IMG/VR virus record: IMGVR_UViG_2833096052_000002
Coordinates: 11,673 to 38,749 of that record
Origin: a virus
Taxonomy: Duplodnaviria > Heunggongvirae > Uroviricota > Caudoviricetes
Reading direction: 5' to 3' (one strand)
DNA length: 27,077 bases
This document shows, piece by piece, positions 13 to 27,006 of this stretch. A model generated the notes under the pieces. The model had not been told where the DNA came from. It searched no databases and worked only from the letters and a program-made list of their open reading frames with translations. The position numbers and the translations under genes were made by a program. Each line of letters starts with the position of its first letter. Position 1 is the stretch's first letter.

Positions 13-26
13 TAAACTGTCGTTTA
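13..26. repeat. KAAA-N6-TTTM boundary palindrome (TAAA CTGTCG TTTA)
   Basis: Overlaps the TAA stop at 24-26. Confidence 0.6.
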
Positions 27-452
27 TTGTTTATTGCTTTTTATATAATCCAAATATTCTTTGTGATACACATCTAGGTCTTTTAGTAATTCTTTACAAT
101 TTTCTGCGTACTGAATATATGTATCAGCCAAATGTCGTCTGCTTTCTTCTGAATCATCGACTAGCTTATATTTCCATTTATTAGCTCTTAACAAGTCTGC
201 ATTATGGTTATAAGTTTCAATACTTTCAGCGTATTCTTTCTTTTTCTTTTCATATGTTTCATCATCAATAATCAGATGTCCAAGTAATTTAGGGAAATCA
301 AAACCTAGTTGTGTTCTTGATATTCCATTGTCTTCTGCATATTTAATATTCCAAGCAATATCATCCCAAGCCATACCACCCAAAAGTGATTTGTTATCCT
401 CTTGTTGCATATATGAAAAATACTCATATAATTCTTCCTTTGATTTGCTCAT
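24..452 (-). CDS. Hypothetical phage protein (142 aa)
   Basis: ORF with a strong SD (GGAGGTG, 4 nt before ATG). No family recognised. Confidence 0.8.
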   Translation of the reverse strand: MSKSKEELYEYFSYMQQEDNKSLLGGMAWDDIAWNIKYAEDNGISRTQLGFDFPKLLGHLIIDDETYEKKKKEYAESIETYNHNADLLRANKWKYKLVDDSEESRRHLADTYIQYAENCKELLKDLDVYHKEYLDYIKSNKQ

Positions 453-508
453 AATTCACCTCCTATGAGAAATCAGTTTATTCTTGCTACTGTATTATTC
501 TCTGTTCT

Positions 509-1069
509 TTATAAAACTTCATCGACAATTCCGTACTTGACTGCTTTATCAGAATGAATATAGAAATCTTTCTTCTTTTCACGAATCTCCTTAATATCAT
601 CTTTTGTGAGATTGGTTCTGTCGATTACATATTCTTCAATCTTTTTATTCAGCCAGTCCATTTCTTCTCTGTCTTCTACCAAATCCTGATATTTACCACT
701 TCTCCAAAAACTTATCTGATGATACATAAATGTTGAATGTTTATAGCAAAATCTTTTATGCCCTGCTAAGAAAATCTTAAAAGCTGCACTCATTGCAGAT
801 CCTGTACAATATGTATAGATTGGAGTTTTGCTATTGAGAATAATATCAATTAATCCCCACATCTCATAAGCAGATCCACCATACGAGTTGATATATAGTT
901 TAATTGGCTCACGCTTATAATCTTTCTCTTTCTCATCTTTCTCATCATCTTCTTGAATCTGTTGTAAAATGCTCCATGTTAATTTACCAATAGATTCGTT
1001 GTCTACATCATCAGATAAGAACAATGTCTTTTTGTCTGTATTTGCATATGAATTATCTCTTGAACTCAT
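509..1069 (-). CDS. clpP: ClpP-like serine protease
   Basis: Motifs TLFLSDDVD, PIKLYINSYGG, TGSAMSAA (catalytic Ser), FMYHQ (His) and KDFY..AVKYGIVD. SD AGGAGG. Confidence 0.9.
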   Translation of the reverse strand: MSSRDNSYANTDKKTLFLSDDVDNESIGKLTWSILQQIQEDDEKDEKEKDYKREPIKLYINSYGGSAYEMWGLIDIILNSKTPIYTYCTGSAMSAAFKIFLAGHKRFCYKHSTFMYHQISFWRSGKYQDLVEDREEMDWLNKKIEEYVIDRTNLTKDDIKEIREKKKDFYIHSDKAVKYGIVDEVL

Positions 1070-1159
1070 AAATCCTCCTATTTTGTTATTTTTATTGTTT
1101 CAATGTACAATATATAGTATGTTTTTATGTTGTCCGCACACTATATATTGTATACAAAA

Positions 1160-1173
1160 GAAATCCGTCTTTC
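1160..1173. repeat. KAAA-N6-TTTM palindrome (GAAA TCCGTC TTTC)
   Basis: Intergenic, between the HD gene and clpP. Confidence 0.6.
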
Positions 1174-1241
1174 CTTGGCTTTTTGAGTCTCTGAAATGCC
1201 CTATTTATGGGCATTCCAGAAATCCTCTATTGTATTATTCT

Positions 1242-1986
1242 CTACAGCTTGGCAAGTAAACTCTTAATTGGCTCTCTATTCATATTTTCTTTAGCCCATG
1301 ATATGTAACTTGGATCTGACTGAGCAACATCAACAAGCTTCTCGCCACTGTGTTTTCCAAAGTTCAGAACATAATCCTCTAACTTAACGGTTTCTTTCTT
1401 TGGCGCTTCAAATCCGTCAAATAGAACTTCAATATCTTTACGACTTGCAAGGTAGTCTGCTAAGTGTAAAATCGTCTGATATTTGTTTTTAGGCAATGGT
1501 AATACCGTTGAACTTCTTTTATCAGTATTCCATGCACCCATATGGCTCTCAATTGTAGTTGCAATCATTTCGATTTCTTCGTCAGGAAGTTCATTGCCTT
1601 TTAACTCACGAATAACATTAGCTGCTAAAAGAGGATGGTTAAACTTTGTATATTTATTTTTTGTGAAGTCATCATCATTTCCGCTTTTTCGTGAATCATG
1701 CATCATCCCTGCAACTCTCATTAAATCTTTCTCTCTTTGAGTAAAATTCTTACCAAAGCAATCAACCGCGAAAATATGGTTTAAGAATCTTACCAAAGCA
1801 CATGTATGTCTTGCCAATCCTAAATCACCAAGAGCATATTGAGGATGGTATTTTCCCGTACTTGACGCACCCACATTCCAAAAAATAATCTAGGATTGTT
1901 TCAATACATCTTTCTGCAAATTTTCTAATATCTTCTGATTCAATTGTGTTTAAAATCGAATCAAAAATGCTTGACTTACTATTCAT
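1242..1986 (-). CDS. HD-domain phosphohydrolase with a C-terminal FGKH..DP.Y..W (DUF3820/ExoX-C-like) module; split by a +1 frameshift at 1880-1885
   Basis: ATG at 1986 behind SD AGGAG gives MNSKSSIF...ETILDYF. Removing one T from the T6 run joins it to WNVGASSTGKYHP...RHT...MMHD...HP...ESHMG...HLADYLAS. Confidence 0.8.
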
Positions 1987-1994
1987 ATATTCTC

Positions 1995-4238
1995 CTATTC
2001 TGCTTTCATAAATATCTGAAGCATTGTTTTTCTATCGAAATTTTCCTTCTTTTTAAGTGCATTATTTACTGTACGAATTTCTCCAAGGTGATAACATTTT
2101 TCTTTTGCTCTACTTTCTCCTACATATAACAAATTGGAATTCAACATGAAGGTATGTGCTTTAGGCGTAATTAAAACAACCACCTTGAACTGACCACCCT
2201 GAGATTTGTGTGTGCTGATAGCATAAGCCAATCGAATATTTTTCATAGAACTTTTTGGGATATAGATAAGCGTTCCATCATAATCAACAACCATTGCATC
2301 TTTTAGAATTTTTACAACTCTACCAGATTCACCATTAGCAATAAATGTTGTATTTTTATCATCAATATATTCCTCATTATAGATAATTGCTTTGTAATCA
2401 TTAGCATAGTTCATTACAATGTCATTCAATCTGAATTCTGTATCTCCAAATGTAATTTTCGCCTTCGGATTAGAATTAACTGCGTTTTGTATCTTCTTAT
2501 TTAATGCTACTGTTCCATAATCACCTACGTTATAGCAAGATAATACTGCAATATCATCAACAGAATATCCTTTGGATAATAATGTCTGATAAAGTTTTAC
2601 AGTATATCCAACAAGTTTATCTTGAAGAATCGGCATAAATATATATGACTGATCTTCACCAAACACTTGCATACCTGTTTTGGTCTTATCTAAATATTCA
2701 GTACCAGTTCGTGTATCTGTAGCAACTGTTGAAAGACCACCTTTACCATATCTGAATACTTTATCAAGCGTAATTGTAGGTATGTTTTCACATTTCAATA
2801 AGTCATATAACACATTACCAGCTCCAACTGAAGGAATCTGTGCATCATCACCAATTAAAAGTAATTTAGTCTTTTCAAAATCAATAGCTTCAAGTAATCT
2901 TCTAAATAAGAAAATATCAACCATAGAAAATTCATCTACGATTACTACATCATATGGTAATTTGTTTTCTTCATTAAATCCCCAATCGGCAGGTGGCATA
3001 TACATAAGACCTCTATGGATTGTCATGGCATTTTCATTTGTAAATCCTGATAATACCTTTGCAGCTCTACCAGTAGGTGCTAAAAGTAAGTGTCTTTTGT
3101 TATATGCATTAAGCATATTTACAAATGCTTGTGTACTCGATGATTTACCACTACCACCATAACCAACTAAAAGAACTATGTTGTTTTCACACATATATTG
3201 AGAAGTTTTACACTGATTGTCTGTTAATTTGAATCCGTCAAGTTCTTGAAATTTAGAGCAATCACAATCCCATTTAGTATGTATTTGTAATCCTTCTTTA
3301 ATCCTATCTGATATATATTTCTCTGTTTCATATGTTTCTTTTTTACATACACTTAATAATTCTCTATCAAATATAACATCATTCTCACTTTTTAATATGA
3401 GTGGCAAATTATTTTTTGCTTCTGGAACTAAAACATCAAACTGTTTCTTCAAATCACCAACATGCATATATGTATTGCCATTGTTCTCATTTTCATCAAG
3501 TAAATAGTCTACACATGCTTTTGCTCTTTGGTATGATGTAATCAAATCAAATCCAAAAAACAATACTGGTTTCTTTCCATTTTTTTGACATTCCTTGCCA
3601 TCTTTATCAAGGGTAAGTAATAATGAATCGGCGGTCTTAAAACCAATTCCACCAAGTCTACATAAACATTGATAAGGTTCTTCTCTGATAACTTCCTTGA
3701 TTTTATCTACTGATGTATATTTGTCATACAACTTTTTTACTGTTGAAAGATTGAATAAACCTCTGAACTCTTCAACAATCTCAGCTAACTTGAAATTTTC
3801 TATAACTTTATTTTTAATGACATTGAATGTATAATCCTTGATTCCTTTAGTCTTATTCAAATCAATATCATCTAATCTGTTATTCATAATCCTATCTACA
3901 ATATCAGGGTACGCTTCAAGTAATACATCCGTTTGATTTGGTGTTAATATTTCATATAAGAAATTTCTTGTTGCTGCTAATGTAGTAGGTTTCTCTCTTT
4001 TAATATTGATTACATCGTATCCGACTCCATGAGAATCGGATACCTCCTTTGCTTTTACAATGTAATCAACTCCAAGATTAAGTTCTGAAATATTACCTTT
4101 AATAGTTGCTGTGCCATATTTGCCAATCTGTACATCAGGATATTCAAATGAATTGACAGAAACGCCATATATTTTGAAGTCAGTAGAATTATATACAGGT
4201 CTTTCTGGTACACATTTAAACTCAATTATTTTATCCAA
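1995..4238 (-). CDS. recD2: RecD2-like SF1B helicase
   Basis: Walker A GYGGSGKS, APTGRAAK, VIVDEFSM, GDDAQIPSVGAG, AYAISTHKSQG, and an N-terminal HhH region (GIGFKTAD). Likely start is TTG at 4238 behind SD AGGAG; the ORF track starts at 4268. Confidence 0.92.
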   Translation of the reverse strand: MDKIIEFKCVPERPVYNSTDFKIYGVSVNSFEYPDVQIGKYGTATIKGNISELNLGVDYIVKAKEVSDSHGVGYDVINIKREKPTTLAATRNFLYEILTPNQTDVLLEAYPDIVDRIMNNRLDDIDLNKTKGIKDYTFNVIKNKVIENFKLAEIVEEFRGLFNLSTVKKLYDKYTSVDKIKEVIREEPYQCLCRLGGIGFKTADSLLLTLDKDGKECQKNGKKPVLFFGFDLITSYQRAKACVDYLLDENENNGNTYMHVGDLKKQFDVLVPEAKNNLPLILKSENDVIFDRELLSVCKKETYETEKYISDRIKEGLQIHTKWDCDCSKFQELDGFKLTDNQCKTSQYMCENNIVLLVGYGGSGKSSSTQAFVNMLNAYNKRHLLLAPTGRAAKVLSGFTNENAMTIHRGLMYMPPADWGFNEENKLPYDVVIVDEFSMVDIFLFRRLLEAIDFEKTKLLLIGDDAQIPSVGAGNVLYDLLKCENIPTITLDKVFRYGKGGLSTVATDTRTGTEYLDKTKTGMQVFGEDQSYIFMPILQDKLVGYTVKLYQTLLSKGYSVDDIAVLSCYNVGDYGTVALNKKIQNAVNSNPKAKITFGDTEFRLNDIVMNYANDYKAIIYNEEYIDDKNTTFIANGESGRVVKILKDAMVVDYDGTLIYIPKSSMKNIRLAYAISTHKSQGGQFKVVVLITPKAHTFMLNSNLLYVGESRAKEKCYHLGEIRTVNNALKKKENFDRKTMLQIFMKAE

Positions 4239-4252
4239 CTTTACATCTCCTT

Positions 4253-7200
4253 TTAATATACGTCCCACTTCTTTACTATTCTCTCTTTTTCATCTGTTTT
4301 AATCCAATCGCCACCAACCTTCTTCATTTTATTTCTCTCACCAAATTCTTTTACATTGATGACATTACCTACTATAAATGGGGATTCAATGAATGACTTT
4401 CCAGAAGTGATTTTTGTTTTAAGATATTCACCATCTCTCATGTTATAAAGCATAAGGTACGGTTTTGTTTTATCCTTATAAAACTTACACTCAAGAACAT
4501 AATACATATCTTTTGGTGCTTTCGGATTTTTATACATTATATTTCCAAGATACTCTTGTTCATATACAATCTGTTCTTTTATTGATAATGGCTTATTCTC
4601 TAAACCGCTTATCATAAGTTTAACAAGTTTGTCTTTATCAACATTACTATACTGTTTAGGTGTCTCTTTCTCTGCACATTTTCTTACATCTTCTTCTCTA
4701 ATGTTCAGTGATGCAATTTTATCTTTTTTCAATGTCTTGCATTTTCCTAACAAATTGTACATATCAATAATTGATAGTAAATATTTATTCTTGCCAAACT
4801 CAGAAAAGAAATTTAGTGTTGTAAGAATATGTAATTGTCTATCATCCACAGATGTTTTTGATATAATATCAGAAAGTAAATCGACAAAATTATCATAATG
4901 ATTTTTAGACAATTCATATAATTCGTCTGCGATCTGATCATTACAATATTTTATAGAAGAGATTCCTTGATAAATGGCATTTTCGTCTTTATCCATAAAA
5001 TACTGTGCTTTGGATTTGCCAAATTTTATTCCTTTGATTTCTATTCCCTGTGATTTGATATATTCTTTGATATTTGACATTTTTTCATTATTGTCTACAT
5101 AAACATTTAATGCTGATGTTAATAGCTCAATCTTATGGTAATACCTTAACCATCCAATAAATAGACCTATCATACTATATGGAACGGAATGATTTCGTGA
5201 AAATAAATAATTAGATGCATCTTCGATTACTATCAAGAATGATTTTATAGTTTCTTTTGCCTCAGCTTCTGTCATTCCATACTTCTCTTGTGCAATTGCA
5301 ATAAATCCTGGAATATATCTATCATCTTTATTACCGTGAATATCTACCATATATCCACCATTTTCAATAATAGGTATATCTGCTTCAGTACCTGTTTTCT
5401 TAGCAAAATGTCTACGGACAATATCTGCTTGTCCCATAGTAAAGCCACAGAAATCATGTAAGAAATCAATAATCTGTTCCTGATATACTAAATAACCAAG
5501 TGTAGGTTTTAAAAACTCATTAAGTGCTTCATTGCCATTGTCCTTGTAAATACCATTAAATAACTGTTCTCTATAAGATTCACCTGCTGGTCTAATAGCA
5601 CCACTAACCATAGCCATTACATCAAGATATGAGATATTATCATTCTGTGCTTTAATATTCTCCAAAGTTTCCTTACTAAGTGTTCTTTTTAATGAATCAC
5701 TTGCAAAACCACTTTCAAACTGGAATATCAATGTAGTATCTTTTGCTATTGAGTTAATAACATTTTCATCTGAGAAATTAACCTTATCAGGTGTTAAATA
5801 ATCTATACCTGCAAGTTTACAAGCACCATCAATTAATCCAACAGCATTTAATCCTAACAAATCTAACTTTACATAATTTAAAGAATCAATTTCGTGCATG
5901 TCTATTTGGCTTACAGGACGTGGATCTGATGTAATAGATAATGTTCCAAAATCATATCTTATATCTGTAGGACTACAAACAATTCCTGCTGCATGTCTGC
6001 CAAGTGATGTAATTGTTCCGATTACCATATCAATATATTTAAACATTTCTGGATATTGTTCTCTGATTTCTTCTGGCATATAATCCCTGCCTTTATCATC
6101 AGTTTCTACCATATTTGATAATTCTTGGGTTTGATCAGGAGTCATCCCATATGCTCTACCGACATCTTTTATCGCTGCTTTTAACTGAATTGTATTAAAA
6201 GTAATAATGTTGCAACAATACAAACCTTCCTTATTAAATAGATACTCACGCACTTTATATCTATCTTCTGCGTAAATATCAGTATCTACATCAGCCAATG
6301 ACATTCTTTCAGGATTCATAAATCGTGAGAAGTTAAGTTTATATTTAACTGAATCAACATCAGTACATTTAATCAAATATGCAATCTCACTACCAGACAC
6401 AGAACCTCTTGAACATCCATAGTGCATATTATTTTTTAGCAACCAATTCTTGTAATCTGAATCGAGTAACATAAAATCAATAGCGTCATTATGTTTATAT
6501 GTTTCTAACTCTTCCTGTATCCTTGGAATATACTCTGTTTTATAATTTGGAAGTTTGCTTATCCTACGTTCTTTTACGCCTTGAACTATTCGTGCCTTAA
6601 ATTCTTTCTCAGCATCAGGATATAATCTTGGATATTTATTACTATAATCCAATTCATATGATTCAATATTATCTGCGAATCTATTTGTTTCTTCGATTGC
6701 ATCAAGATAAATTGATTTGGGTAATGCATTCTGTAATTCAAAGGCAGTAACCATATCATCATAAGATTTCCATGACAAATCACACGCATCCTCGTCATGA
6801 AAATTAACATTTTTTGATTTCTGCATCACTGCTCTACCCATCATATGATCTTTATCAATAGCATGTACATCGCTTGTAGCAATAAGCTTCATTCCATATT
6901 TCTGAGCAATTCTATACAAATACTGATTGTAATAAATTTGAACGTCAAAATTGTGTGGCTGTATTTCCAACCAACATCTATGCTTATTTTTAATAAGGAA
7001 TTTCAGAAATCTTTCCTGTACTTCTTTCGTTCCTTTACATAACATGCCTGCAACACAAGCTGTTAATACTAAAATATTATCTGATGTATTCTCAAGTTCC
7101 TCTAAGGTAATTCGTGGATTATAATAAAAATGACCATCATTACGATTAAATGAATCAGAAGAAAGTTTGTTAAGTTCTAATACCCCGTCATAATTCTTTG

Positions 7201-7486
7201 CGTATAAGCAACAATGATAATTGTCTCTTTGCAGATTATCCATATCAATTTTTTCTGTTACATAGAATTCTTCTGCATTAATATATTTCAACCCAGCCTT
7301 TTCACATGCCTGTCTTTTTGCAACATTATGAAGGACTGCGCCATGCTCTGTGAAAGCAATGGCTTTCATTCCTTCTGATTTTGCTTTATCAATATAAGCT
7401 TGAAAAGGGGTGATTGAGTCAACTTCAAGACCGCTATATGGGTTAGAATCCATACTATGTAAATGTAATACTGTTAAATTGCTCAA
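4253..7486 (-). CDS. dnaE: DNA polymerase III alpha subunit (family C, PHP domain with intact-looking metal ligands)
   Basis: HLHS..S, FTEHG, TSDVH, RGSVSGS, FSRFMNPER, DVDTD catalytic aspartates, GRHAAG, KLDLLGL, YQEQ, YLFSRNHS. No intein seen. Confidence 0.96.
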   Translation of the reverse strand: MSNLTVLHLHSMDSNPYSGLEVDSITPFQAYIDKAKSEGMKAIAFTEHGAVLHNVAKRQACEKAGLKYINAEEFYVTEKIDMDNLQRDNYHCCLYAKNYDGVLELNKLSSDSFNRNDGHFYYNPRITLEELENTSDNILVLTACVAGMLCKGTKEVQERFLKFLIKNKHRCWLEIQPHNFDVQIYYNQYLYRIAQKYGMKLIATSDVHAIDKDHMMGRAVMQKSKNVNFHDEDACDLSWKSYDDMVTAFELQNALPKSIYLDAIEETNRFADNIESYELDYSNKYPRLYPDAEKEFKARIVQGVKERRISKLPNYKTEYIPRIQEELETYKHNDAIDFMLLDSDYKNWLLKNNMHYGCSRGSVSGSEIAYLIKCTDVDSVKYKLNFSRFMNPERMSLADVDTDIYAEDRYKVREYLFNKEGLYCCNIITFNTIQLKAAIKDVGRAYGMTPDQTQELSNMVETDDKGRDYMPEEIREQYPEMFKYIDMVIGTITSLGRHAAGIVCSPTDIRYDFGTLSITSDPRPVSQIDMHEIDSLNYVKLDLLGLNAVGLIDGACKLAGIDYLTPDKVNFSDENVINSIAKDTTLIFQFESGFASDSLKRTLSKETLENIKAQNDNISYLDVMAMVSGAIRPAGESYREQLFNGIYKDNGNEALNEFLKPTLGYLVYQEQIIDFLHDFCGFTMGQADIVRRHFAKKTGTEADIPIIENGGYMVDIHGNKDDRYIPGFIAIAQEKYGMTEAEAKETIKSFLIVIEDASNYLFSRNHSVPYSMIGLFIGWLRYYHKIELLTSALNVYVDNNEKMSNIKEYIKSQGIEIKGIKFGKSKAQYFMDKDENAIYQGISSIKYCNDQIADELYELSKNHYDNFVDLLSDIISKTSVDDRQLHILTTLNFFSEFGKNKYLLSIIDMYNLLGKCKTLKKDKIASLNIREEDVRKCAEKETPKQYSNVDKDKLVKLMISGLENKPLSIKEQIVYEQEYLGNIMYKNPKAPKDMYYVLECKFYKDKTKPYLMLYNMRDGEYLKTKITSGKSFIESPFIVGNVINVKEFGERNKMKKVGGDWIKTDEKERIVKKWDVY

Positions 7487-7504
7487 CTTCTCACCTACCT
7501 ATAT

Positions 7505-8674
7505 CTATAAACTATTCACAAATGCCAATAAATCTTCCTCGTCATTATCAGTTTCGTTTTCTTCTCCACTCTTAAATAATTCCTGAGCCTTCAAATATTC
7601 ATCATATGGTTTATGTAATGATCTTGAATATCCTGATAGGGTTGCCAATCTAAAAGCATCTGCATCTGTAACTTCTTGCCAAAAGATATTTTCATCTTCA
7701 CTATCTTTATATTCTCTTTCTTTCTCGTTGATTTCTGAAATAGTGCTAATGATATCTGTTTTTAGATCATTTATCTTCTCTTCTGTTAATGGAATCTGCA
7801 CATAACAATCATGGATTTCGAATTTTTCTCTAACCTCATCTGGTAAACAATCAATATTGTTGTTTAACACCATCTCATCAACATATTTATCAATATCATC
7901 TTCATATCCGAAATTTTTCAGCCACATCTTTGCCGTATTGATAAGACTTTCGCCTATAGAATTTCTTTCTATATATCTATCTTTTTTCTTACCATTTTTC
8001 TGTTCAATGGTAACTGTGACATATTTTAAGAAATTCCATTCGCATACAATATCTTCCAATGGAATATTTAATGCTTGTCTAATACCTTCAGCATAAATAA
8101 CCAACTGACCACATTCAGCGTCAATTTTTGCGCCTTGATAACGTGTAGATGTCTTCCAATCTACAATATGTACACGTTTTTTCTCATTACCATTTTCATC
8201 TTTGTATGACTCGATATAAAGCATGTCAATATATCCTTGTATATAAATATCATCAGAAATTTTAATTGTAATAAAATGCTCAACTTTATGTGGAAAAGTA
8301 ATCTGATTATGATTTTTAAAGAAATGTCTAATGCAATTTTCATATTTATTTGCTATTGCATCATTTTTATCAGAATCACTGCGATTGTATTTGAGTTCTG
8401 CACAATTCATTGTAAATAAGCTATCTTCATATAAATCTGGCATATCCTCATATTTAATTTTGCCAGTATATAGCTGCTCAATAATATCATGTACATTACC
8501 ACCAGATACACAATAAATACTATTTGTTCTATCTTCTTTCTTGTGTAGGATGTATTTCAAAAAATATTCCCATCTATCTTGTTTGTAACAATGATACCTT
8601 GACCATGACCATAATGTATCAACACCAAACTTGTTACAAATTTCTGTTAATTCTTTACTTGTCTTTCTTGCCAA
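7505..8674 (-). CDS. PD-(D/E)xK nuclease, RecB/AddB-like exonuclease
   Basis: QGYIDML...IVDWKT...QLVIY motif, with an acidic C-terminus. Confidence 0.85.
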   Translation of the reverse strand: MARKTSKELTEICNKFGVDTLWSWSRYHCYKQDRWEYFLKYILHKKEDRTNSIYCVSGGNVHDIIEQLYTGKIKYEDMPDLYEDSLFTMNCAELKYNRSDSDKNDAIANKYENCIRHFFKNHNQITFPHKVEHFITIKISDDIYIQGYIDMLYIESYKDENGNEKKRVHIVDWKTSTRYQGAKIDAECGQLVIYAEGIRQALNIPLEDIVCEWNFLKYVTVTIEQKNGKKKDRYIERNSIGESLINTAKMWLKNFGYEDDIDKYVDEMVLNNNIDCLPDEVREKFEIHDCYVQIPLTEEKINDLKTDIISTISEINEKEREYKDSEDENIFWQEVTDADAFRLATLSGYSRSLHKPYDEYLKAQELFKSGEENETDNDEEDLLAFVNSL

Positions 8675-9723
8675 TCTCTTAACTTTCTCCTTTCTGACTC
8701 ATCATATAAAACACGATGCTTGAGAAGGAAGTTGTATACTTTATTTGGCATATCAGCAGGGCTGTCTTTACTACCTTTCTTAATCAAATCCCAACGATCA
8801 TATATGTAACTTACTTTTCTAATAGGATAAAATTTATCACATTCCTGTCTAATATGGTTTATATCAATTCCTTCATCTAAAGCCACTACAATTTCTACAT
8901 TTAAACTGATCAGTATCCTAACTTGTTCTTCTGTAAGCTCACAATTTCCTATTGCAACAGCCGTACCATCTTTTCGTGAATACCTTTTAAGCACCGATTT
9001 CTGCGCTTCCAAAACGACTGCATAACCAGCCTCTTGAATTGTTTGATAATTCTCATTTAACCCATATACATTTATTCCTTTTGGATATGTTTTGGATAAC
9101 TTAAAAAACTTCGGAATATCAAACATCTCATAATTTGGTACAGTAGTTCTCCCACTGATACCTATATATTCATTGTCATCTCCATCCCACTTTCGTTCAG
9201 GAATGACAATTCGTTTTCTATCATATGAATATCCAATATTAAATCTTTTACATGCAAAAGGCATAACGCCTTCACGAATCCAATCAATATATGGCAAATC
9301 AATATATTCTTTCATACATGAATCATCATACACTGGAACATCTTTATCAATTGTGTATCTTTGGCGTTTCACCTTTTTGAAGATTGCTAATGGATCTTTC
9401 TTATTATCTTTGTTGTCACTCTTGCTATATGAATATTTCAAACCTAAAATATTGTGGAGATATTTATTAGCTTTTCCAAAAGATATACCTTTTATTGTCA
9501 TAACCAATGTAAAAATATCTCCACGCTTATTTTCTTCCGAACTTCTAATCGCCACTGATAATGTATCTTTCTTTACACATATCGCAGTTTTATTATTGCC
9601 TTGTGGCAAGGCGGCTCTCCATTCAGTAGAATAACTTTTTATTCCGTGACACTCTAAGGCAAGAAGAATTTGTTCCACACAATTATTCTCTATAATGTAT
9701 TCTTTAAGTTCACCAGCATTAAT
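8647..9723 (-). CDS. dnaG: Phage DNA primase (TOPRIM)
   Basis: RIVIPER, GISGRT, YGL, VVLEAQKS, VVALDEG and KDSPAD; lies between DnaB and the polymerase. Start is probably ATT at 9723; the ORF track starts at 9786. Confidence 0.8.
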   Translation of the reverse strand: MNAGELKEYIIENNCVEQILLALECHGIKSYSTEWRAALPQGNNKTAICVKKDTLSVAIRSSEENKRGDIFTLVMTIKGISFGKANKYLHNILGLKYSYSKSDNKDNKKDPLAIFKKVKRQRYTIDKDVPVYDDSCMKEYIDLPYIDWIREGVMPFACKRFNIGYSYDRKRIVIPERKWDGDDNEYIGISGRTTVPNYEMFDIPKFFKLSKTYPKGINVYGLNENYQTIQEAGYAVVLEAQKSVLKRYSRKDGTAVAIGNCELTEEQVRILISLNVEIVVALDEGIDINHIRQECDKFYPIRKVSYIYDRWDLIKKGSKDSPADMPNKVYNFLLKHRVLYDESERRKLRDWQERQVKN

Positions 9724-10458
9724 TATGACCACCGCCTTTATCAAGGAATTTTTCATATAAATGTTTTTGAGGTGCAAATTCACCATAATATTTTTGTTCA
9801 GCTAATAATCTTGCTTTTATTGCTTCTGTCATGTCACTAAAGAATCCTAAATGAATTGCTTTGCCATTCATATGTACTCTTGCTTGCCATTTGTTTTGTG
9901 TTTTATTCCAATTAACACCTATAATTCCAGATGTATTATTTTTCTTAAGACCATTATTTCGATTATTTTCTGAATAAGAACAGATTCGTAAATTTGACTT
10001 TCTGCAATCATTTTTATTTCTATTGATATGATCTACAATATTTGTTGAAGGAAGAATAAGTGAATGAAGATTTATTCGTTTTTTATCAGGCTTTTGTGCT
10101 TGCACATATCCATTTCCTGAGATATGCCAACAATAATCTTTAATTTTGTCATAATCCTCTAAATCAAAATAAAACTCTTCACCTTTAGATGTGTATCCAA
10201 TACCATATTCACCTGATAAATCATAAGTATTATATTTTTTGTTTCTATCTTTGCTACTTTGAATTTTTAAACAACCACACGATTTTGTAGTACCATTAGT
10301 CAAGCTTCCTGATACAATTGATTTATAATTACCGCAATCACACAAACATTTCCAATAAACATTTCTTCCTTTGTGTTTCTTCGTTTCATTTTTATCAACT
10401 TCTAAAATACAATCAATTTCCCGAATCTTTGACCTGATAAATCTCGTATTGCACCCAT
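9719..10458 (-). pseudogene. Free-standing HNH-AP2 homing endonuclease, frameshifted after codon 18
   Basis: SD GGAGG plus ATG at 10458 gives MGAIRDLSGQRFGKLIVF-stop (TAG at 10402-10404). Another frame continues with WKCLCDCG, TKSCGC, VDHINRNKNDCRKSNLR (HNH) and NTSGIIGV..WQARV..HLGFF (AP2). Confidence 0.85.
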
Positions 10459-10478
10459 CCTTATCCTCCATCACAAAT

Positions 10479-11987
10479 TTAAAAATCAACTGGGACAGAA
10501 GTAAAACCAACTTCTTTCAGTATATTTCTACTCATATCATGCTCACATACAATCTGTATACTACTTGCAGCACCCTCACGGTTTTTACAAATGAATATAA
10601 GCTGATAATGTTTGCCTTCGTCCAGTTTGACAGGTATTTTTGATTTATTGTTTTTTCCATCAAATCTATATACCTTTAAAGCATTTTTCTCACCTGTATA
10701 CTCATCTTCAAATACATCTCTCAACATTAAACATGTACTCGCAGGATCGACAATACTTTTTGCCATACCAATATTATCTTGACTATAAAATCTCTGACGT
10801 GCTGAAGACTTTGCCAACTGGAATGTAATAGTTACATGAACTTCCAATCCACCTTCTTCTTTACACTTAATTGTGTCATAAATATCAACCATATTCTGTT
10901 GCATATCTAACCACATCTTATCGGAACGACTGCCTGAATCGGCTTTATATGTATCAAGAATGAAATACTTAACACCGAGGTTTGCATATTTCTTTAGAAC
11001 TTTTATGAATTTCTGAGTCTTATATCTTTTAAATGGAATAAGAGTAAGCATGTTATTCTCAGATTTTTCAACAATCCAATCCGCACATTTCTTTAACAAA
11101 TCTTTTGTCTCATCTGAATATTTACCATCTCTTACAACAAACTTCTGTAAGTCTTGTTTGTAGATATTATTTGCAACCCATACAAGTAATTCTCTCTGCC
11201 ACTTACGAATTCCTTCTTCGTTTACAGCTATGACAAGCCTTTCCCCATATTTAATCGTGCTTGGGATTAACATTGATCTTGTTAATGTGGTTTTACCCAT
11301 ATTAGATAATCCACCAATCAGTGTTATATTGCCAGGTAACTGACCACCAGTTTCCTTGTTGAGAATATCCATATTATTATAAGGAAGACCAACTGCAATA
11401 CCTGCATCTAACTCATCAATTAAATCATAAATGCCATCAGCCAATGAATATGACTGTACATCATCATCTGCATTGATGAAAATATGATTTAACATTGCTT
11501 CATATTCTTCATATATTTCATCTAAAGACATATCACAGAATTCATTGATACGATTATTTACAGGAAATCCATTTTTTAACATCTCCAAAACTGTTTTCCA
11601 CTTGTATAACTCTTTGACATATCCATCCATATTGTTGATGTTTACATACTCTTTGGCTTTATCAATAGTTTCATATCCACCATAATCCTCATATTCCTTT
11701 TTGAGTTTTTGATGTTTTTCAAGATATAAACCAACAGTCATATCATCCAATACTGATTTCTTTTCTACTACAATAATGTCATTTGCAATCTGCCAATAGA
11801 CTCGCCATGTATTTTCACTAAAATCTTCAAGCTGCAATGTATAATCAAAAATTAATTCTGGTTGTTTATATAAAATAGCAACTATATTAGCTTCTGCTAT
11901 TATCTTGTATTCTCGAATCTGTTTTGCACATTTTAATACTTCTTCCTGATAAGGAGTTAATTTTTTATTCTCTTTTTTCTCAGCCAA
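10479..11987 (-). CDS. dnaB: Replicative DnaB-like helicase
   Basis: Walker A GGLSNMGKTT, Walker B FILDTYK, TFQL, and ICKNREG (arginine finger region). Confidence 0.9.
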   Translation of the reverse strand: MAEKKENKKLTPYQEEVLKCAKQIREYKIIAEANIVAILYKQPELIFDYTLQLEDFSENTWRVYWQIANDIIVVEKKSVLDDMTVGLYLEKHQKLKKEYEDYGGYETIDKAKEYVNINNMDGYVKELYKWKTVLEMLKNGFPVNNRINEFCDMSLDEIYEEYEAMLNHIFINADDDVQSYSLADGIYDLIDELDAGIAVGLPYNNMDILNKETGGQLPGNITLIGGLSNMGKTTLTRSMLIPSTIKYGERLVIAVNEEGIRKWQRELLVWVANNIYKQDLQKFVVRDGKYSDETKDLLKKCADWIVEKSENNMLTLIPFKRYKTQKFIKVLKKYANLGVKYFILDTYKADSGSRSDKMWLDMQQNMVDIYDTIKCKEEGGLEVHVTITFQLAKSSARQRFYSQDNIGMAKSIVDPASTCLMLRDVFEDEYTGEKNALKVYRFDGKNNKSKIPVKLDEGKHYQLIFICKNREGAASSIQIVCEHDMSRNILKEVGFTSVPVDF

Positions 11988-11998
11988 TTAGTACCTCC

Positions 11999-12457
11999 TC
12001 AAAACAGTTTCTTCATTCTGTCACTTGTCTCTTTAGTCTTTTTTACATATCCAGCATTCTCATTACTCTGATTATTGAAGTCTTTAGATTCAACTCTTTC
12101 CTCAGTCTTTTTAACATTCTGTAATCTTAAATACACATCGTTGATTTCAGGCTCAATCATTTTTATAATAAGATTGATTTTATGTTTTTCATCTTTGATT
12201 TTCTTTTCATTTTCATGCAAATATGTAACAATTTTTCTCTTACATAACTTAAAAGTACATAAAATTGTGTAATCATCATAATTAGCTTTTGCTTCATGAT
12301 TATTATTCGCTATATGTTCGCCACGTTTAATACCTTGTAGCTTTAATGCGAGATACTGTGGAAATTTCATATTATCATCGTATTCAAGAATCTCTTTCTT
12401 TACATATTCACATAGTTCAATCCACTGCTCGTTATCTTTCTTTTTTATATTTCTCAT
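11999..12457 (-). CDS. Hypothetical protein upstream of DnaB (possible helicase partner)
   Basis: ORF with SD AAGGA. The function is suggested by position only. Confidence 0.75.
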   Translation of the reverse strand: MRNIKKKDNEQWIELCEYVKKEILEYDDNMKFPQYLALKLQGIKRGEHIANNNHEAKANYDDYTILCTFKLCKRKIVTYLHENEKKIKDEKHKINLIIKMIEPEINDVYLRLQNVKKTEERVESKDFNNQSNENAGYVKKTKETSDRMKKLF

Positions 12458-12477
12458 TTACCAAATCATCCTTTCTT

Positions 12478-12509
12478 AAAAACTCCAACAGGAAATTAAC
12501 CTGTCGGAG
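12478..12509 (-). terminator. Intrinsic terminator after the AAA ATPase gene
   Basis: On the minus strand CTCCGACAGG-TTAATTT-CCTGTTGGAG forms a 10-bp stem with one G-U pair, followed by TTTTT. Confidence 0.8.
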
Positions 12510-12520
12510 CATAATTTTAA

Positions 12521-13504: not shown

Positions 13505-13551
13505 TTTTTTATCCTCCTAAAATTTCATAAATTATATTCTTTTGATAAACT

Positions 13552-13591
13552 GCTTACCCTGTTTATTTAATACAGGGTAAGCGTATTTTTT
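13552..13591. terminator. Perfect 11-bp hairpin between the SSB-like and AAA genes, possibly a bidirectional terminator
   Basis: GCTTACCCTGT (13552-13562) pairs with ACAGGGTAAGC (13572-13582). The T-run is on the plus side; only a weak AGTTT follows on the minus side. Confidence 0.65.
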
Positions 13592-14783: not shown

Positions 14784-14998
14784 ATTACTTGTCCTCCTTA
14801 AAATTAAAAAATTTATGTAAATATTGTTAATAAAACAATCTATCTAAACGCCCAAAAAAGGACGGAACATAGAAGTTAATTTATGTAAAATCTATCTTCA
14901 ACAGTGATTTTTGAGTGCAATAACCCAAGGGTATGCTGCTAACCACCCATATTTTTATTCTCTGTTCAGTTATTTGTTTTTGGAATTGTTTGACTTGA

Positions 14999-15957: not shown

Positions 15958-15971
15958 GAAACAGTGATTTA
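15958..15971. repeat. KAAA-N6-TTTM palindrome (GAAA CAGTGA TTTA)
   Basis: Intergenic. Confidence 0.65.
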
Positions 15972-16708: not shown

Positions 16709-16760
16709 CTCTTACTTATTTCTATTCGATTTTCATTTTTATTGGGAATTGTTTGGTTGA

Positions 16761-17066: not shown

Positions 17067-17113
17067 ATCCTCACCCCCTAACTATATATTCTCTGTTTTC
17101 TTTCTTCTCATTA

Positions 17114-17227
17114 CTAATTCAAACTCTGTGCTAGGATATGAAATCTGATTTTCTTTTCAGAAATTGATTTCTTTTTTGTCTCAATCTGTTTCTTTAATTC
17201 TAAAATTCTGTCATCGTTTTTACTCAT
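17114..17227 (-). pseudogene. 37-aa ORF, probably the truncated N-terminus of a longer gene
   Basis: The ATG overlaps the TGA of the upstream gene. Translation: MSKNDDRILELKKQIETKKKSISEKKIRF then HILAQSLN-stop. Below the ORF-track size cut-off. Confidence 0.55.
17140..17153. repeat. KAAA-N6-TTTM palindrome (GAAA TCTGAT TTTC)
   Basis: Lies at the apparent truncation point of the 37-aa ORF. Confidence 0.6.
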
Positions 17228-18764: not shown

Positions 18765-18784
18765 CAAGAAACGAATCTTTCTTG
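18765..18784. repeat. Extended palindrome CAAGAAA CGAATC TTTCTTG
   Basis: Perfect 7-bp arms directly after the stop of the PurA-like gene. Confidence 0.7.
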
Positions 18785-18787: not shown

Positions 18788-19879
18788 TCAGTTCACATCA
18801 TTATGTGTTTCGCCATCTGAATAATAAATATTCCAATCCTTGAATAGCTCAATTAACTTATCATTATCCCAATCATATTCATTACAATGTGTAATGGCGA
18901 TTGATTTTTTATCTCCAAAGTTTCCTACATCATTAGAGCATCTACTATATAATTCTCCTAAATCCAGTGTTCCATATCTTAATGTATCCTGGAATGGATT
19001 TGGTACATTTGTTTTGTCAAACATATATTCGTTGATAAATCTCTTATTGCATTCAGATGGAAATTTTCCAGCACCATGTCTTGTCAAATAAGTACGAGAT
19101 ACATAACAAGTTTCAATATTTATCTCATCATTCCATTCAACATTTTCAATTATTCTCTTGGGATTTTTAATACCTGTATTAGACGGTGTTAGATGTGGGA
19201 AATATTCTGTGTTGTTCTGATCAAGCAAAAGTCCTTGTGCTGCTTCAAATACAATATTGTCAAACTGATTTAAGAAATAATTATCTGATATAGCCAATGA
19301 GTGATTATTCATAAAATCCCAATCATCTAAAAAGTGTTCAAATATACCATTATCAAGGAATATTCTTGACCATTCATCTGTTAATATAATATTCTCTCTT
19401 TCAAATTGTTCTAAATAATATTCCCTGATATGATTATCTACATCAGTTATACCAGCTTTATATCTTTTGATAGTTTCAAAAATTCCCAAGCCACAACTAC
19501 CATGTTTATTTTTCCCACGATTTTCCTCTATAATCTGATTTGCCATCATATCAAAAGGCGTTGTCAACATACAGTTTTGATTGATATAAACATTCGGGAC
19601 ATATCCTAATTTCATCAATTCATCATATTCTTGCTTAAAAATAATTGGATTAACAATAAAATCCTCAGATAAATATGTACTTGCATGATTGAATGTTCCA
19701 GATCCAAAATGATGAAAGACATGTCTGATTCCATTAGATGTTATTACAGTATGTCCTCTTTGGGCACCACCATTTGAACACACAACAATACTATTCGGTT
19801 TTTGCGAGAAATAATCTGTCATTAGACCTTTTCCTTCGTCTCCCCAATTCGCTCCACATACAATCTTCATGTCTTTCAT
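18788..19879 (-). CDS. purA: Divergent adenylosuccinate synthetase (PurA) homologue
   Basis: GANWGDEGKG P-loop, GG..GHT, FEAAQGLLLD, TPSNT and TYLTRHGAGKFPSE. The aspartate-binding loop and TKLD motif are substituted, so canonical activity is doubtful. Confidence 0.85.
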   Translation of the reverse strand: MKDMKIVCGANWGDEGKGLMTDYFSQKPNSIVVCSNGGAQRGHTVITSNGIRHVFHHFGSGTFNHASTYLSEDFIVNPIIFKQEYDELMKLGYVPNVYINQNCMLTTPFDMMANQIIEENRGKNKHGSCGLGIFETIKRYKAGITDVDNHIREYYLEQFERENIILTDEWSRIFLDNGIFEHFLDDWDFMNNHSLAISDNYFLNQFDNIVFEAAQGLLLDQNNTEYFPHLTPSNTGIKNPKRIIENVEWNDEINIETCYVSRTYLTRHGAGKFPSECNKRFINEYMFDKTNVPNPFQDTLRYGTLDLGELYSRCSNDVGNFGDKKSIAITHCNEYDWDNDKLIELFKDWNIYYSDGETHNDVN

Positions 19880-21733: not shown

Positions 21734-22057
21734 CTACTCTTTTGCAATTCCAATGCCATTTACTTTAAAGCTAGTAACCTTACCCTCTTCAATTTCAACA
21801 TTTTCTTCTGTGCCACCATACCAAACAAGACCAACGCCTGTAATATACATATCATTTTCATCTTCAATCAATTCAACTTCTTGCGTTGCTCCAATAGGAA
21901 GAAACCGACCATCACTACATGGTATCTCAATCGGAACATCCTTTACATTTTTATAAGCGTTTCTAATTGCTTCTTTTGAATATATCACACCGTTCAAATC
22001 AGGCTTATCAACTGGAATTGGAATTTTAAATGTTACTTCTATATTCTCTGTTCTCAT
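21734..22057 (-). CDS. Hypothetical protein
   Basis: ORF with SD AGGAG. Confidence 0.7.
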   Translation of the reverse strand: MRTENIEVTFKIPIPVDKPDLNGVIYSKEAIRNAYKNVKDVPIEIPCSDGRFLPIGATQEVELIEDENDMYITGVGLVWYGGTEENVEIEEGKVTSFKVNGIGIAKE

Positions 22058-22069
22058 GTACTTATTCTC

Positions 22070-22225
22070 CTATTCATCTTTGTCTATAATGAACCAATAA
22101 AAAAAACTTAAAAGTGTAAAAGTGATTCCAAGTATTTTATTTTCTGCTTGATATGAATACATCGTTACACCACTACAGAACCATACCAAAAGAAATGCGA
22201 TTGCTTGTCTATAATACTTTTTCAT
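22070..22225 (-). CDS. Small 51-aa two-helix membrane protein (missing from the ORF track)
   Basis: SD GGAGGTG, 4 nt, ATG. Translation: MKKYYRQAIAFLLVWFCSGVTMYSYQAENKILGITFTLLSFFYWFIIDKDE. It fills the gap between its neighbours exactly and overlaps the upstream stop. Confidence 0.75.
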   Translation of the reverse strand: MKKYYRQAIAFLLVWFCSGVTMYSYQAENKILGITFTLLSFFYWFIIDKDE

Positions 22226-22440
22226 TTCACACCTCCTATCTTCTCGGCTACTTTTGCTTCACATATTTCACAAATACAGTCATTTTTCTCATCATACTTT
22301 TCAAGTTCACTAATGAGATTACTACAACACCAGCTTGATTCATTAAGATAAAATTCAATCATGTCGTTATCCCAATCCGAAGGGAAGTCCATTGGAAGAT
22401 TTATTGTCCACTGTATAGTTTTAATCTGTCTATCTACCAT
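22222..22440 (-). CDS. Hypothetical small acidic protein
   Basis: ORF with SD AGGAG. Confidence 0.65.
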   Translation of the reverse strand: MVDRQIKTIQWTINLPMDFPSDWDNDMIEFYLNESSWCCSNLISELEKYDEKNDCICEICEAKVAEKIGGVK

Positions 22441-22452
22441 ATAGTTATTCTC

Positions 22453-22647
22453 CTATTCGTAATCTTCTGGATATTCTTTATAGTTATCTACCACGCTTTT
22501 CATATAACTAAAATAATCTTTTACAGAATCACTACTATCAGAAAATCCACTTAGCACTTCGTATCCATTATCGAACACTGCAAAGGTTAAGAAACCTGAG
22601 CTATCTAGTCCTACTTCTATGTCACAGCCTTTATATTTACCCTTCAT
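22453..22647 (-). CDS. Hypothetical small protein
   Basis: The second ATG (22647) follows SD GGAG. Confidence 0.65.
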   Translation of the reverse strand: MKGKYKGCDIEVGLDSSGFLTFAVFDNGYEVLSGFSDSSDSVKDYFSYMKSVVDNYKEYPEDYE

Positions 22648-22651
22648 ACTG

Positions 22652-22864
22652 TTATTCTCCATCTAATATTTCAACATCAATACAGAATAAATTATGTAAA
22701 TTTTTAATCTGATCATCAGTTGGTTTCTTCCATGCCATTGTTTCATTAATATTAATCGTTACAGCACCACCACATAATTTAACCCTTGCAATAACTCTTG
22801 GATTACGATAAGCTACAACTTTTGGCATTGGAATACTACAATTTGTTTTTGGTAATTGTGTCAT
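22652..22864 (-). CDS. Hypothetical small protein
   Basis: The ATG at 22864 follows SD GGAG. Confidence 0.65.
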   Translation of the reverse strand: MTQLPKTNCSIPMPKVVAYRNPRVIARVKLCGGAVTININETMAWKKPTDDQIKNLHNLFCIDVEILDGE

Positions 22865-23856: not shown

Positions 23857-23896
23857 ATTCGCACCTCCATTCTTCACAATAAAGAAAAATTTCTTG

Positions 23897-25306: not shown

Positions 25307-25309
25307 AGA

Positions 25310-25861
25310 CTAATCCTCTTTGAACAAATCCTGTGGAGCATCATCTGGCGCATTGTAATCCAGATACTCATATTCCTGCACTTCATATCCAAGCAATCCA
25401 AGGAAATATCTTATATGGAGCTTTCTTACATATCTCTTGTATTCCTTAACCTGCTTATTGTAATTGCTGCGATGCTCTGCAATCATATTCTCTGTCATAG
25501 ATAACTCATTCATAAGAGTCTTATAGTTCTCATTGGACTTCAGCTCAGGATATGCTTCTGCAACTGCTGTAATAGCTGTTGTTACATTCTCAATATCTCC
25601 TGTTGTTCCACGACCATCGGCAACTGCTGTCAATGTATCAGCTTCATGTTTATCGTACTGTTTTACACAATCAGCAAGGTTATACACAAGGTCAACTCTT
25701 CGCTTTTCCTGTACCTTAATATCTGATGATGCTGTATTTACCTGCTCCTCAAGTGCAATAGCCTTATTCTGTAAACTCTGTACACCAAATACAATCATCA
25801 AAATAACTGCTAATACTCCTACGCCAATAATTACTGGCACTTTCCAATTTGTGTTTTTCAT
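25310..25861 (-). CDS. lemA: LemA family protein
   Basis: N-terminal TM, RR.DLV.NL..VKQY..HE..TL, AVAEAYPELKSNENY..LM.EL..TEN.IA..R..YN. Confidence 0.9.
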   Translation of the reverse strand: MKNTNWKVPVIIGVGVLAVILMIVFGVQSLQNKAIALEEQVNTASSDIKVQEKRRVDLVYNLADCVKQYDKHEADTLTAVADGRGTTGDIENVTTAITAVAEAYPELKSNENYKTLMNELSMTENMIAEHRSNYNKQVKEYKRYVRKLHIRYFLGLLGYEVQEYEYLDYNAPDDAPQDLFKED

Positions 25862-25970
25862 TTAAAATCTCCTTTATATGTATTATTTTTATTGATTACA
25901 CTGTAATATTCTCTTATTTGTTGGGATTTACATAGCCGAATGGCTTAGATATAATTAAAAATTTCCGAAT

Positions 25971-25984
25971 GAAAGATTGGTTTA
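25971..25984. repeat. KAAA-N6-TTTM palindrome (GAAA GATTGG TTTA)
   Basis: Overlaps the TAA stop at 25982-25984. Confidence 0.65.
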
Positions 25985-26926
25985 CTTCGATTCTCCTGAA
26001 TCATTAAATTCTCTACCTTCAATGATATTCTGGATACCTGTTTTACATTTTTCTAAAGCAAAAGCATATGCGTTATTATAGATAAGTTTGTCGTATTCTG
26101 CTGTTAGATTGGCGTATGCACTATCAATAGCTTCATCAATACCATCTATAAACCTGCAAAGTCTGTCAATTACTTCATTATTGACAAACTCTTCATCATA
26201 TAGTTTTGCAGTTGCCCTCAAACCTCTTGATTTATTTGCATGTTCGAAAGCCTTTAACTCATCTTTACCAAGCCATTTGATCCATGCACCGCAATCATCA
26301 CAATAAAGTCCTGTGTTGTTACCTTTTACTTCATTGCAAAGCTTACACATTGTTTGATAGTTACTAATATCATCAATACCACCTTTTGAGCGTGGTATAA
26401 TATGATCTTTTGTCATTAAAATTTCATTGCCATTATCATCAACTGCATATAAATTCAGATGATAACTCTTATCCTGTAAATGTCTTTCTTTTGCAAAATA
26501 TTTTCCTTCAATTCCACAAACTACACATTTACAACCTTTAGTAAAAAATGTTTGGTATCTTTGGCTATTGCCCTTAATCAAATCTCCGTCAAAATCAACT
26601 TTTGCAAGTTTTTTATCTTTCTCAAATAAAACATCTTTAACCTTATCTCTGGCTTCTTCTATTGAATAGATTTCTTTCCTAAGTAATTTTGTAGGATTAA
26701 AATCTTTTAAAAGCGTTTTTACTTCACCTAATTTAAAACATTTTTCAAATAGCGGTTGCTTGTGCCAAGTTACGGATAATAATTCCGTATCTTTTGTAGG
26801 TGACATTGGATTATTGTTCTTAGGGAAATCGGTTTCTAAAAAATCTCGTATTGTCTCGAACCTCAAAGACAATACCTTATCATCGACTTTGTATTGGATT
26901 TTAAATTTTTTATCTTTTCTTCGCAT
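25982..26926 (-). CDS. HNH (McrA-like) endonuclease-domain protein with an extra C-terminal region
   Basis: CVVCG...TKDHIIPRSKGG.DDISNYQTMCKLCNEVKGN. Likely start is ATG at 26926 behind SD AAGGAG. Confidence 0.8.
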   Translation of the reverse strand: MRRKDKKFKIQYKVDDKVLSLRFETIRDFLETDFPKNNNPMSPTKDTELLSVTWHKQPLFEKCFKLGEVKTLLKDFNPTKLLRKEIYSIEEARDKVKDVLFEKDKKLAKVDFDGDLIKGNSQRYQTFFTKGCKCVVCGIEGKYFAKERHLQDKSYHLNLYAVDDNGNEILMTKDHIIPRSKGGIDDISNYQTMCKLCNEVKGNNTGLYCDDCGAWIKWLGKDELKAFEHANKSRGLRATAKLYDEEFVNNEVIDRLCRFIDGIDEAIDSAYANLTAEYDKLIYNNAYAFALEKCKTGIQNIIEGREFNDSGESK

Positions 26927-26992
26927 AAAACATATCTCCTTATAATTTATTGTCACCTATATATTCTCTCTTTGTCATTCAAAAACTCAAAG

Positions 26993-27006
26993 GAAATGCT
27001 TCTTTA
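26993..27006. repeat. KAAA-N6-TTTM palindrome (GAAA TGCTTC TTTA)
   Basis: Overlaps the TAA stop at 27004-27006. Confidence 0.65.

Follow-up and report, generated by a model that had tools for sequence, protein, structure and literature searches.

A palindromic motif, KAAA-N6-TTTM, recurs at gene boundaries of a 27,077-nt stretch of phage DNA (hereafter, the window), which comprises bases 11673-38749 of the IMG/VR record IMGVR_UViG_2833096052_000002 (Caudoviricetes). We find that copies of this motif, referred to as hinge sites, mark fixed, addressed boundaries between exchangeable gene modules, the address being the six central bases of a site: the motif is real, the order of the addresses is fixed in related phages, and the junctions between modules fall at the motif edges. 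Our tentative explanation is that these are sites of the dif/Xer type, where related phages would swap modules in register; we infer the identity of the binding protein, and likewise that the exchange depends on the site as such and not on short homology.

The source record is a 178,076-bp virus, classed as a provirus and rated 100% complete by IMG/VR. Its GC content is 32%, and its genes are directed leftward from position 1 to ~105 kb and rightward beyond that point. Non-coding DNA makes up 9.1% of the window.

Enrichment and structure of the motif

The window contains 19 exact matches to KAAA-N6-TTTM, compared to 9.0 +/- 3.0 in dinucleotide shuffles, and none of 100 shuffles reached 19. A control for spacing, retaining the same arms at other spacer lengths, was judged to be sharper than the shuffles: nine N6 matches in the window are non-coding, versus 0-2 for spacers of 2-10. 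For the whole genome, we observed 95 matches at N6, 36 of them non-coding, as compared to 44-65 (6-14 non-coding) for spacers of 0-20, and to 68-80 (9-18 non-coding) for non-palindromic arm pairs at N6. Thus, the excess of the motif noticed in a first-pass annotation of the window made from the sequence alone is borne out. The same tendency was observed in 80 related loci (N6, n = 828; other spacers, n = 399-571) and in a more distant subset of related loci (N6, n = 126; other spacers, n = 42-69).

The leftward arm of the genome harbors 30 of the 36 non-coding copies, and two of the remaining six, situated in the rightward arm, are parts of terminator hairpins. An A two bases 5' of the core and a T two bases 3' of it accompany 26 of the 36 non-coding copies versus 12 of the 59 copies called as coding; several of these twelve are found at gene edges (e.g. 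23880). We estimate the number of genuine sites at about 33, all of them in the leftward early/accessory arm and none inside the block of replication genes. All seven exact sites listed in the first-pass annotation (13, 1160, 15958, 17140, 18768, 25971, and 26993) are present, three of them (13, 25971, and 26993) provide a gene with its stop codon, TAA, from within the arm, as had been noted, and the core replication genes are indeed free of the motif, with no true-like copy across ~1995-14783. The copy at 23880-23893 had been overlooked, being masked by an over-long open reading frame (ORF) call. Both copies described as weaker, at 469 and 14898, turned out to be degenerate; the latter shares its centre with the site at 15958.

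The arms, initially described as reaching up to 7 bp, are longer. About 500 unique half-sites from related phages yield the extended consensus t-C-n-M-A-R-KAAA-N6-TTTC-n-T-K-K-G-R, that is, a palindrome of approximately 10-6-10; oriented with transcription, the consensus within the genome is A-R-[G>T]AAA-N6-TTT[C>A]-N-T-K-K-G-R-A. Conservation is evident in the right arm, with G19 in 71% of the half-sites. The information profile features conserved inner arm bases, loosely conserved outer arm bases, and a free centre, the central six bases yet being richer in GC than their surroundings. Immediately beyond the core, the linkers vary far more than neutral positions do, the minor-allele share reaching 0.49 as compared to 0.07 at 4-fold sites. 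Many copies are located 0-10 nt past a stop codon, and many are 21-26 nt ahead of the next start codon and ~10 nt ahead of the ribosome-binding site.

Covariation expected of a hairpin is absent, as the non-conserved mirror positions pair below chance (positions 0/15, 7 pairs versus 10.6 expected; positions 5/10, 6 versus 10.2). The predicted RNA folds are weak (-1.3 to -7.9 kcal/mol, z-scores from +0.2 to -1.7), often leaving the arms unused, and an Rfam search returned zero matches. Thus, the site behaves as a protein site on duplex DNA and not as a hairpin, and, judging by its sequence, it most likely is a protein-binding site on double-stranded DNA. At the sites there is no stable hairpin and no excess of promoter- or terminator-like sequence; when the sequence contexts were read, a promoter-like word was seen within 60 nt at only ~5 of the 33 sites.

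Fixed address order and module junctions

The comparison set comprised ~160 related loci, the PurZ-like gene serving as the anchor for 80 and a recombinase gene for the other 80, from phages that proved to be highly mosaic. The order of the addresses was invariant, being the same in 817 of 817 and in 1296 of 1296 pairwise comparisons (2113/2113 together), and no locus ever contained two copies of one address. Within a genome, duplicates with the same centre were chance matches only, with the exception of a twin of the TCACTG site; this twin lies inside a conserved leader, 362-1598 nt downstream of the true TCACTG site in relatives, and is not itself a junction.

Identical 14-mers, the centre included, sit between unrelated 300-nt flanks, the numbers of left and right flank types being 7 x 12, 7 x 12, 3 x 14 (the site at 18768), and 7 x 11. 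Among the ways of clustering the flanks, ungapped comparison over-split them and k-mer single linkage collapsed all of them, while BLAST-based clustering and greedy local alignment bracket the truth. Flanks found beside two different addresses are rare, ~6% (19 of 309 left clusters; 21 of 324 right clusters). As the order is fixed and the flanks are slot-specific, exchange occurs in register at homologous positions rather than by free movement of cassettes. Hence, of the initial suggestion that the sites delimit exchangeable cassettes in an integron-like manner, the first half is upheld, since synteny breakpoints of the relatives, seen as broken adjacency and homology boundaries, fall at the motif; the comparison with integrons fails on the strictly fixed order, the single copy of each address per locus, the rarity of flanks shared by two addresses and the lack of an attC-like fold. 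Free cassette mobility of the integron type is ruled out by the invariant address order.

Approximately 12% of distinct BLAST homology starts and 12% of ends coincide with core edges, versus 0.4-1.5% for the N5, N7, and N8 controls. The peaks are sharp, falling on the first and the last base of the core, and at 88% of 322 true-like sites there is a homology boundary at a core edge. Gene adjacency shows the same tendency: adjacent genes of the reference remain adjacent in relatives in 7 of 150 cases for gaps with the motif versus 362 of 695 for other gaps (Mann-Whitney test per gap, p = 5e-4), and adjacency is zero at 8 of 10 motif gaps versus 12 of 49 other gaps (Fisher's test, p = 0.0016).

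Among 13 hinges that vary on both sides, four passed the four-gamete test, with two left and two right flanks in all combinations; the presence of all four combinations requires a crossover within ~30 nt of the core. At 17140-17153 the homology with relatives stops at the 3' edge of the motif in this genome, and the ORF is cut. As read from the aligned sequences, this cryptic intragenic copy with a unique centre served as a junction, which homology cannot explain.

Candidate binding proteins and rival explanations

If the sites are of the dif/Xer type, a hinge would be a binding site on duplex DNA whose inverted arms, ~10 bp each, are read over their inner 4-6 bp and enclose a free 6-bp centre. 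Gene modules of the leftward arm are bounded by about 33 copies, every copy having a centre of its own and a fixed place in the series. On an encounter of two related genomes, hinges with identical centres would undergo strand exchange and thereby swap the content on either side in register, whereas differing centres would stop recombination among the hinges of one genome. Half-sites around a 6-bp centre had been recognized from the start as resembling tyrosine-recombinase core sites, and the extended consensus agrees with this, having inverted arms of ~10 bp, a 6-bp centre, and arms conserved on the inside and loose on the outside. In the XerH-difH system, with arms of 11 and 10 bp, the inner 5 bp are read base-specifically and the 6-bp centre is barely contacted, a readout pattern that matches the information profile of the hinge (PMC5241119). 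The arms of difSL, TTTCCGAAAA and TTTTCTTGAAA, resemble the ..CAAGAAA / TTTCTTG.. of the phage (PMC5357621).

The binding protein would be encoded by the phage itself. A search for a tyrosine recombinase, which the first-pass annotation had called for, identified three Xer-like ones by Pfam, all outside the window (genome 77090-78082, 121706-122722, and 174564-175562) and all retaining the catalytic R-K-H-R-H-Y. Their best matches are XerC, XerS, XerA, and XerH, with scores far below the equivalog cut-offs, and annotated phages contain only Xer-like relatives of <=34% identity. The recombinase at 174564-175562 is the only one situated near a genome end, as an integrase would be, and this recombinase 1, near the right end, is likely the integrase. 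The most likely candidate for the hinges would be recombinase 2 (77090-78082), situated in the motif-rich arm and kept at 70-97% identity across the same phage clade; it is followed by a 64-residue HTH_3 protein (genome 76893-77087). An HTH_26 protein is encoded at genome 102854-103156, and there are further helix-turn-helix (HTH) proteins. A search of the genome for serine recombinases found none; integron-integrase models scored 22-70 bits versus cut-offs of 265-435, so that an IntI-type integrase is absent; and recombinase 2 is not similar to YopP of SPbeta (E = 0.14).

Several observations weigh against site-specific exchange by such a recombinase. The left outer arm is only a weaker mirror of the right one (C at -4 in 35%, T at -5 in 46%), the contrast between inner and outer arm bases fits HTH operators equally well, and the centres are barely more conserved than 4-fold sites of the neighboring gene (p = 0.037 at one site). 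No link connects any of the recombinases to the site: the hinge nearest to recombinase 2 is ~650 nt upstream of it, while in the XerS and XerH modules the site is adjacent to the recombinase gene. Moreover, a recombinase-fold protein, MrpR, acts purely as a repressor on the dispersed SPBRE sites (PMC10516654), and a function in expression would likewise suit hinges that are confined to one transcription arm and placed ~10 nt ahead of the ribosome-binding site. Natural recombinants with a crossover at the site are observed, but exchange driven by short homology would look alike; and where one side is a conserved gene, such as PurZ, a boundary at the core can arise without a crossover there. The diversity of contexts is just as high for other conserved intergenic words (GAGAATA-type, Shine-Dalgarno). 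In one metagenome contig, 807 bp with small genes (window 22053-22861) are missing, and 11 bases at the joint fit either side; this deletion occurred at repeated GGAGAATAA ribosome-binding-site words with no palindrome and hence is a short-homology event. Together, the context-diverse words and the 11-nt microhomology imply that short-homology exchange occurs at conserved intergenic words anyway.

These points lead to a possible, if somewhat doubtful, alternative, in which the sites are operators or roadblocks bound by a repressor (an HTH dimer of the Cro/CI type or a recombinase-fold protein) that would keep the long leftward operons of the prophage silent or insulated. At junctions the sites would then act only passively, being the sole conserved stretch between unrelated modules, as are the promoter-early stem-loops (PeSLs) of other phages. 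Inverted arms of 4-6 bp around a 6-bp spacer suit HTH dimers as well, the ~33 intergenic copies are restricted to one transcription arm at a steady distance before the ribosome-binding site, and both HTH_3 and HTH_26 proteins are encoded, one of them directly beside recombinase 2. There are precedents in SPBRE, bound by MrpR (PMC10516654), and in the 17-bp palindrome present in >30 copies in Cluster O mycobacteriophages (PMC4351075). Passive exchange would also agree with the other intergenic motifs acting as junctions, and short homology could be exploited by two products of the phage, a Sak4-like annealing protein and an exonuclease. However, as promoter-like words are seen near only ~5 of 33 sites, an operator would have to work as a roadblock, and crossovers within 14-26 bp at dozens of hinges, in phages diverged by ~7%, would represent a very high rate for passive homology; the junction at the cryptic intragenic copy, with its unique centre, cannot stem from homology. 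No homologue of MrpR was found in the phage genome with SPbeta MrpR (YopR) as the query, a weak test that, being run with no positive control, shows little.

Exchange might instead be induced by breaks or stalling, if a nicking or cutting enzyme, or a replication fork stalled at a bound protein, produced ends at the motif, and a co-infecting relative then provided the template for repair through switching or annealing. We consider this improbable: the site has not been connected with any enzyme, tracts of homing-type conversion usually stop at scattered distances and not at site edges, and 30 cuts in its own genome are something from which a phage would have to be protected, even though several HNH and GIY-YIG genes are present, the homology boundaries are sharp at both core edges next to hypervariable linkers, one HNH gene is bracketed by the hinges 25971 and 26993, and a cryptic site served as a junction. 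We give either of the two remaining explanations very little credence. An RNA-level signal in the polycistronic mRNA, a hairpin or a protein-binding site steering downstream translation or processing, would account for the constant place (21-26 nt before many starts, ~10 nt before the ribosome-binding site) and for the orientation with transcription; it is largely refuted by mirror positions pairing less than by chance, by the weak folds, and by the lack of Rfam matches, since a palindrome has no meaning in single-stranded RNA that does not pair. A promoter or other transcription signal for a phage-specific sigma factor or polymerase might be suggested by the conserved G at position 19 followed by purines, a possible start point, and by a weak match to sigma-70 region 2 (19 bits, genome 74382-74534). 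Nevertheless, promoters do not typically show dyad symmetry, Pfam returned no match for the sigma-like ORF, the distance to the ribosome-binding site is too short at most sites, and GAGAATA-type words are better candidates; a T7-like RNA polymerase was not found in the genome by a weak search that produced no match in control genomes either. Zero reads were placed from the single raw RNA run available for a sample containing a relative.

Window features, known systems and significance

The replication block of the window encodes a RecD/Dda-like helicase, DNA polymerase, exonuclease, a primase-like protein, a DnaB-like helicase, a Sak4-like annealing protein, and an HNH gene, and is flanked by small accessory genes, the PurZ/PurA-like gene, and a second HNH gene. 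Copies of the motif are listed in Table 1.

Table 1. Hinge sites and motif-like copies in the window (window coordinates).
Feature	Position	Strand	Remarks
Hinge site	13..26	-	Sense TAAA-CGACAG-TTTA; TAA doubles as stop codon for the upstream gene 24-452
Weak degenerate motif-like sequence	469..482	-	Imperfect left arm; probably non-functional
Hinge site	1160..1173	-	Sense GAAA-GACGGA-TTTC; follows a terminator-like hairpin; closes the replication block; followed by two NrdR-box-like palindromes
Degenerate TCACTG twin (AAAA-TCACTG-TTGA)	14898..14911	-	Within a conserved 215-nt leader
Hinge site, address TCACTG	15958..15971	-	Upstream boundary of the replication-gene block; homology with relatives begins exactly here
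Motif copy	17140..17153	-	Intragenic in relatives, encoding EKKIRF; truncated ORF in this genome
Hinge site, address GATTCG	18768..18781	-	7 nt past the PurZ-like gene; same 14-mer followed by 14 right-hand flanks in relatives
Hinge site, address TTTTTC	23880..23893	-	7 left and 12 right flank types in relatives; metagenome contig joint at 23881
Hinge site, address CCAATC	25971..25984	-	TAA doubles as stop codon for the HNH gene 25982-26956; left flanks in relatives many and unrelated
Hinge site, address GAAGCA	26993..27006	-	TAA is the stop codon of the upstream gene; brackets the HNH gene together with 25971

Two other matches were rejected, the one at 25863 as a chance match on a Shine-Dalgarno sequence and not a true copy, and the one at 9989 for lying inside an HNH gene. 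A run of ten N (genome 11663-11672) adjoins the first hinge of the window, and the downstream gene is unreadable through this run. The HNH endonuclease gene at 9719-10510 sits between the primase-like and DnaB-like genes; one metagenome contig lacks it, with a joint from 9723 to 10465 and 12 other letters in between, and such presence and absence is the usual behavior of homing-type genes. The PurZ/PurA-like enzyme is encoded at 18788-19879, matching PHROG 1211 ('2-aminooxy adenylosuccinate synthetase', E = 1.5e-66), and its gene is kept at 84-97% in 80 relatives. With such an enzyme, the phage DNA might carry a modified adenine, which would alter the reading of the A-rich arms by a protein.

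Other words recur between genes. GAGAATA occurs 134 times in sense and 15 times in antisense in the whole genome (in the window, e.g., at 17087, 26962, 25907, 14956, and 496, minus strand) and falls into two classes. In the first one it is a Shine-Dalgarno sequence with a spacer, GGAGAATA-N3-5-ATG, often overlapping the preceding stop codon. The second, ACAGAGAATATATAG-like class is located 10-45 nt before the real ribosome-binding site, often after a hinge site, and by its sequence looks like a phage promoter element. A third recurring word, ACAATTYCCAATAAAAATGAAAAT (window 16709-16760 and 14784-14998, minus strand), is among the most context-diverse 14-mers in relatives and marks some module boundaries that have no palindrome. 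There also are two tandem pairs of 16-bp palindromes of the type ACACTATATATAGTGT, spaced by 31-33 bp (window 1107-1122 and 1140-1155; genome 50099 and 50130). NrdR boxes are arranged in this way; the assignment is unconfirmed, given that the next gene in the window is ClpP-like and not nrd.

Two known systems in which short sites mediate module shuffling are pdif modules and PeSLs (PMC6449649, PMC13141974; PMC2839356, PMC4122927). The pdif/dif modules of Acinetobacter similarly have dispersed sites composed of an arm, a 6-bp centre, and an arm that bound variable accessory modules in one replicon; however, they are copies of the host dif served by the host XerC/XerD, they alternate in orientation, and the modules move between plasmids and positions (PMC6449649, PMC13141974), whereas the hinges have phage-specific GAAA/TTTC arms, private centres, a fixed order, and a candidate enzyme encoded by the phage. 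PeSLs of T4-type phages likewise are short intergenic elements serving as exchange points between unrelated genes in hyperplastic regions, but each combines a sigma-70 promoter with a terminator hairpin, and they recombine by homology (PMC2839356, PMC4122927); the hinges lack a promoter or a stable hairpin, span only 14-26 bp, and have site-specific centres.

SPBRE of SPbeta is a dispersed intergenic element in a large temperate phage of Firmicutes, bound by a recombinase-fold protein. It is present in about ten copies in promoter regions, and MrpR, devoid of the catalytic residues, only represses (PMC10516654); in contrast, there are ~33 hinges, mostly with no promoter, and all three phage recombinases keep R-K-H-R-H-Y. 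The record of SPbeta c2 (L169) annotates palindromes at 37857-37872, beside yopM, and at 42395-42412, after yopR (mrpR); these are TTGTAATGCATTACAA and GTAAAC-CATATG-GTTTAC, respectively, and the latter, with A-rich arms around six bases, loosely resembles the motif described here. The Cluster O palindrome shares with the hinges its >30 copies in short intergenic gaps, a variable centre, and a function that is still unknown, and differs in being near-identical at every copy and in having a 3-bp centre (PMC4351075). Integron attC and attI also are recombination sites bounding units of one or a few genes; however, attC acts as a folded single strand and the cassettes move and reorder, whereas the phage sites have no fold, a fixed order, and no IntI-type integrase. 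Stoperators of Cluster A mycobacteriophages are at least 30 near-identical copies of a short site in short intergenic gaps of operons. To our knowledge, there is no report of address-like centres that keep a fixed order for either stoperators or the Cluster O palindrome.

It is an old question whether mosaic joints of phages are found at gene boundaries due to selection on random joints or due to built-in linkers. Here such linkers are directly visible in ~160 natural relatives, as a short protein-type site, individually addressed, kept in a fixed order, with exchange at its edges. It is a rather unlikely extension of the dif/Xer-type reading that recombinase-mediated cassette exchange at heterospecific sites has a natural counterpart in this phage, an Xer-like recombinase encoded by the phage acting on ~30 hinges with shared arms and private centres. 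If so, only the same hinge in two genomes would recombine, allowing for a slot-by-slot trade of accessory modules at a high rate, while each genome remains stable. If a phage recombinase does act on the hinges, they would constitute a dedicated system by which abundant gut phages exchange accessory and counter-defence genes, and a natural source of orthogonal recombination sites; if, instead, a repressor binds them, they would add a new case of roadblock control spanning the genome, in which recombination is channelled as well.

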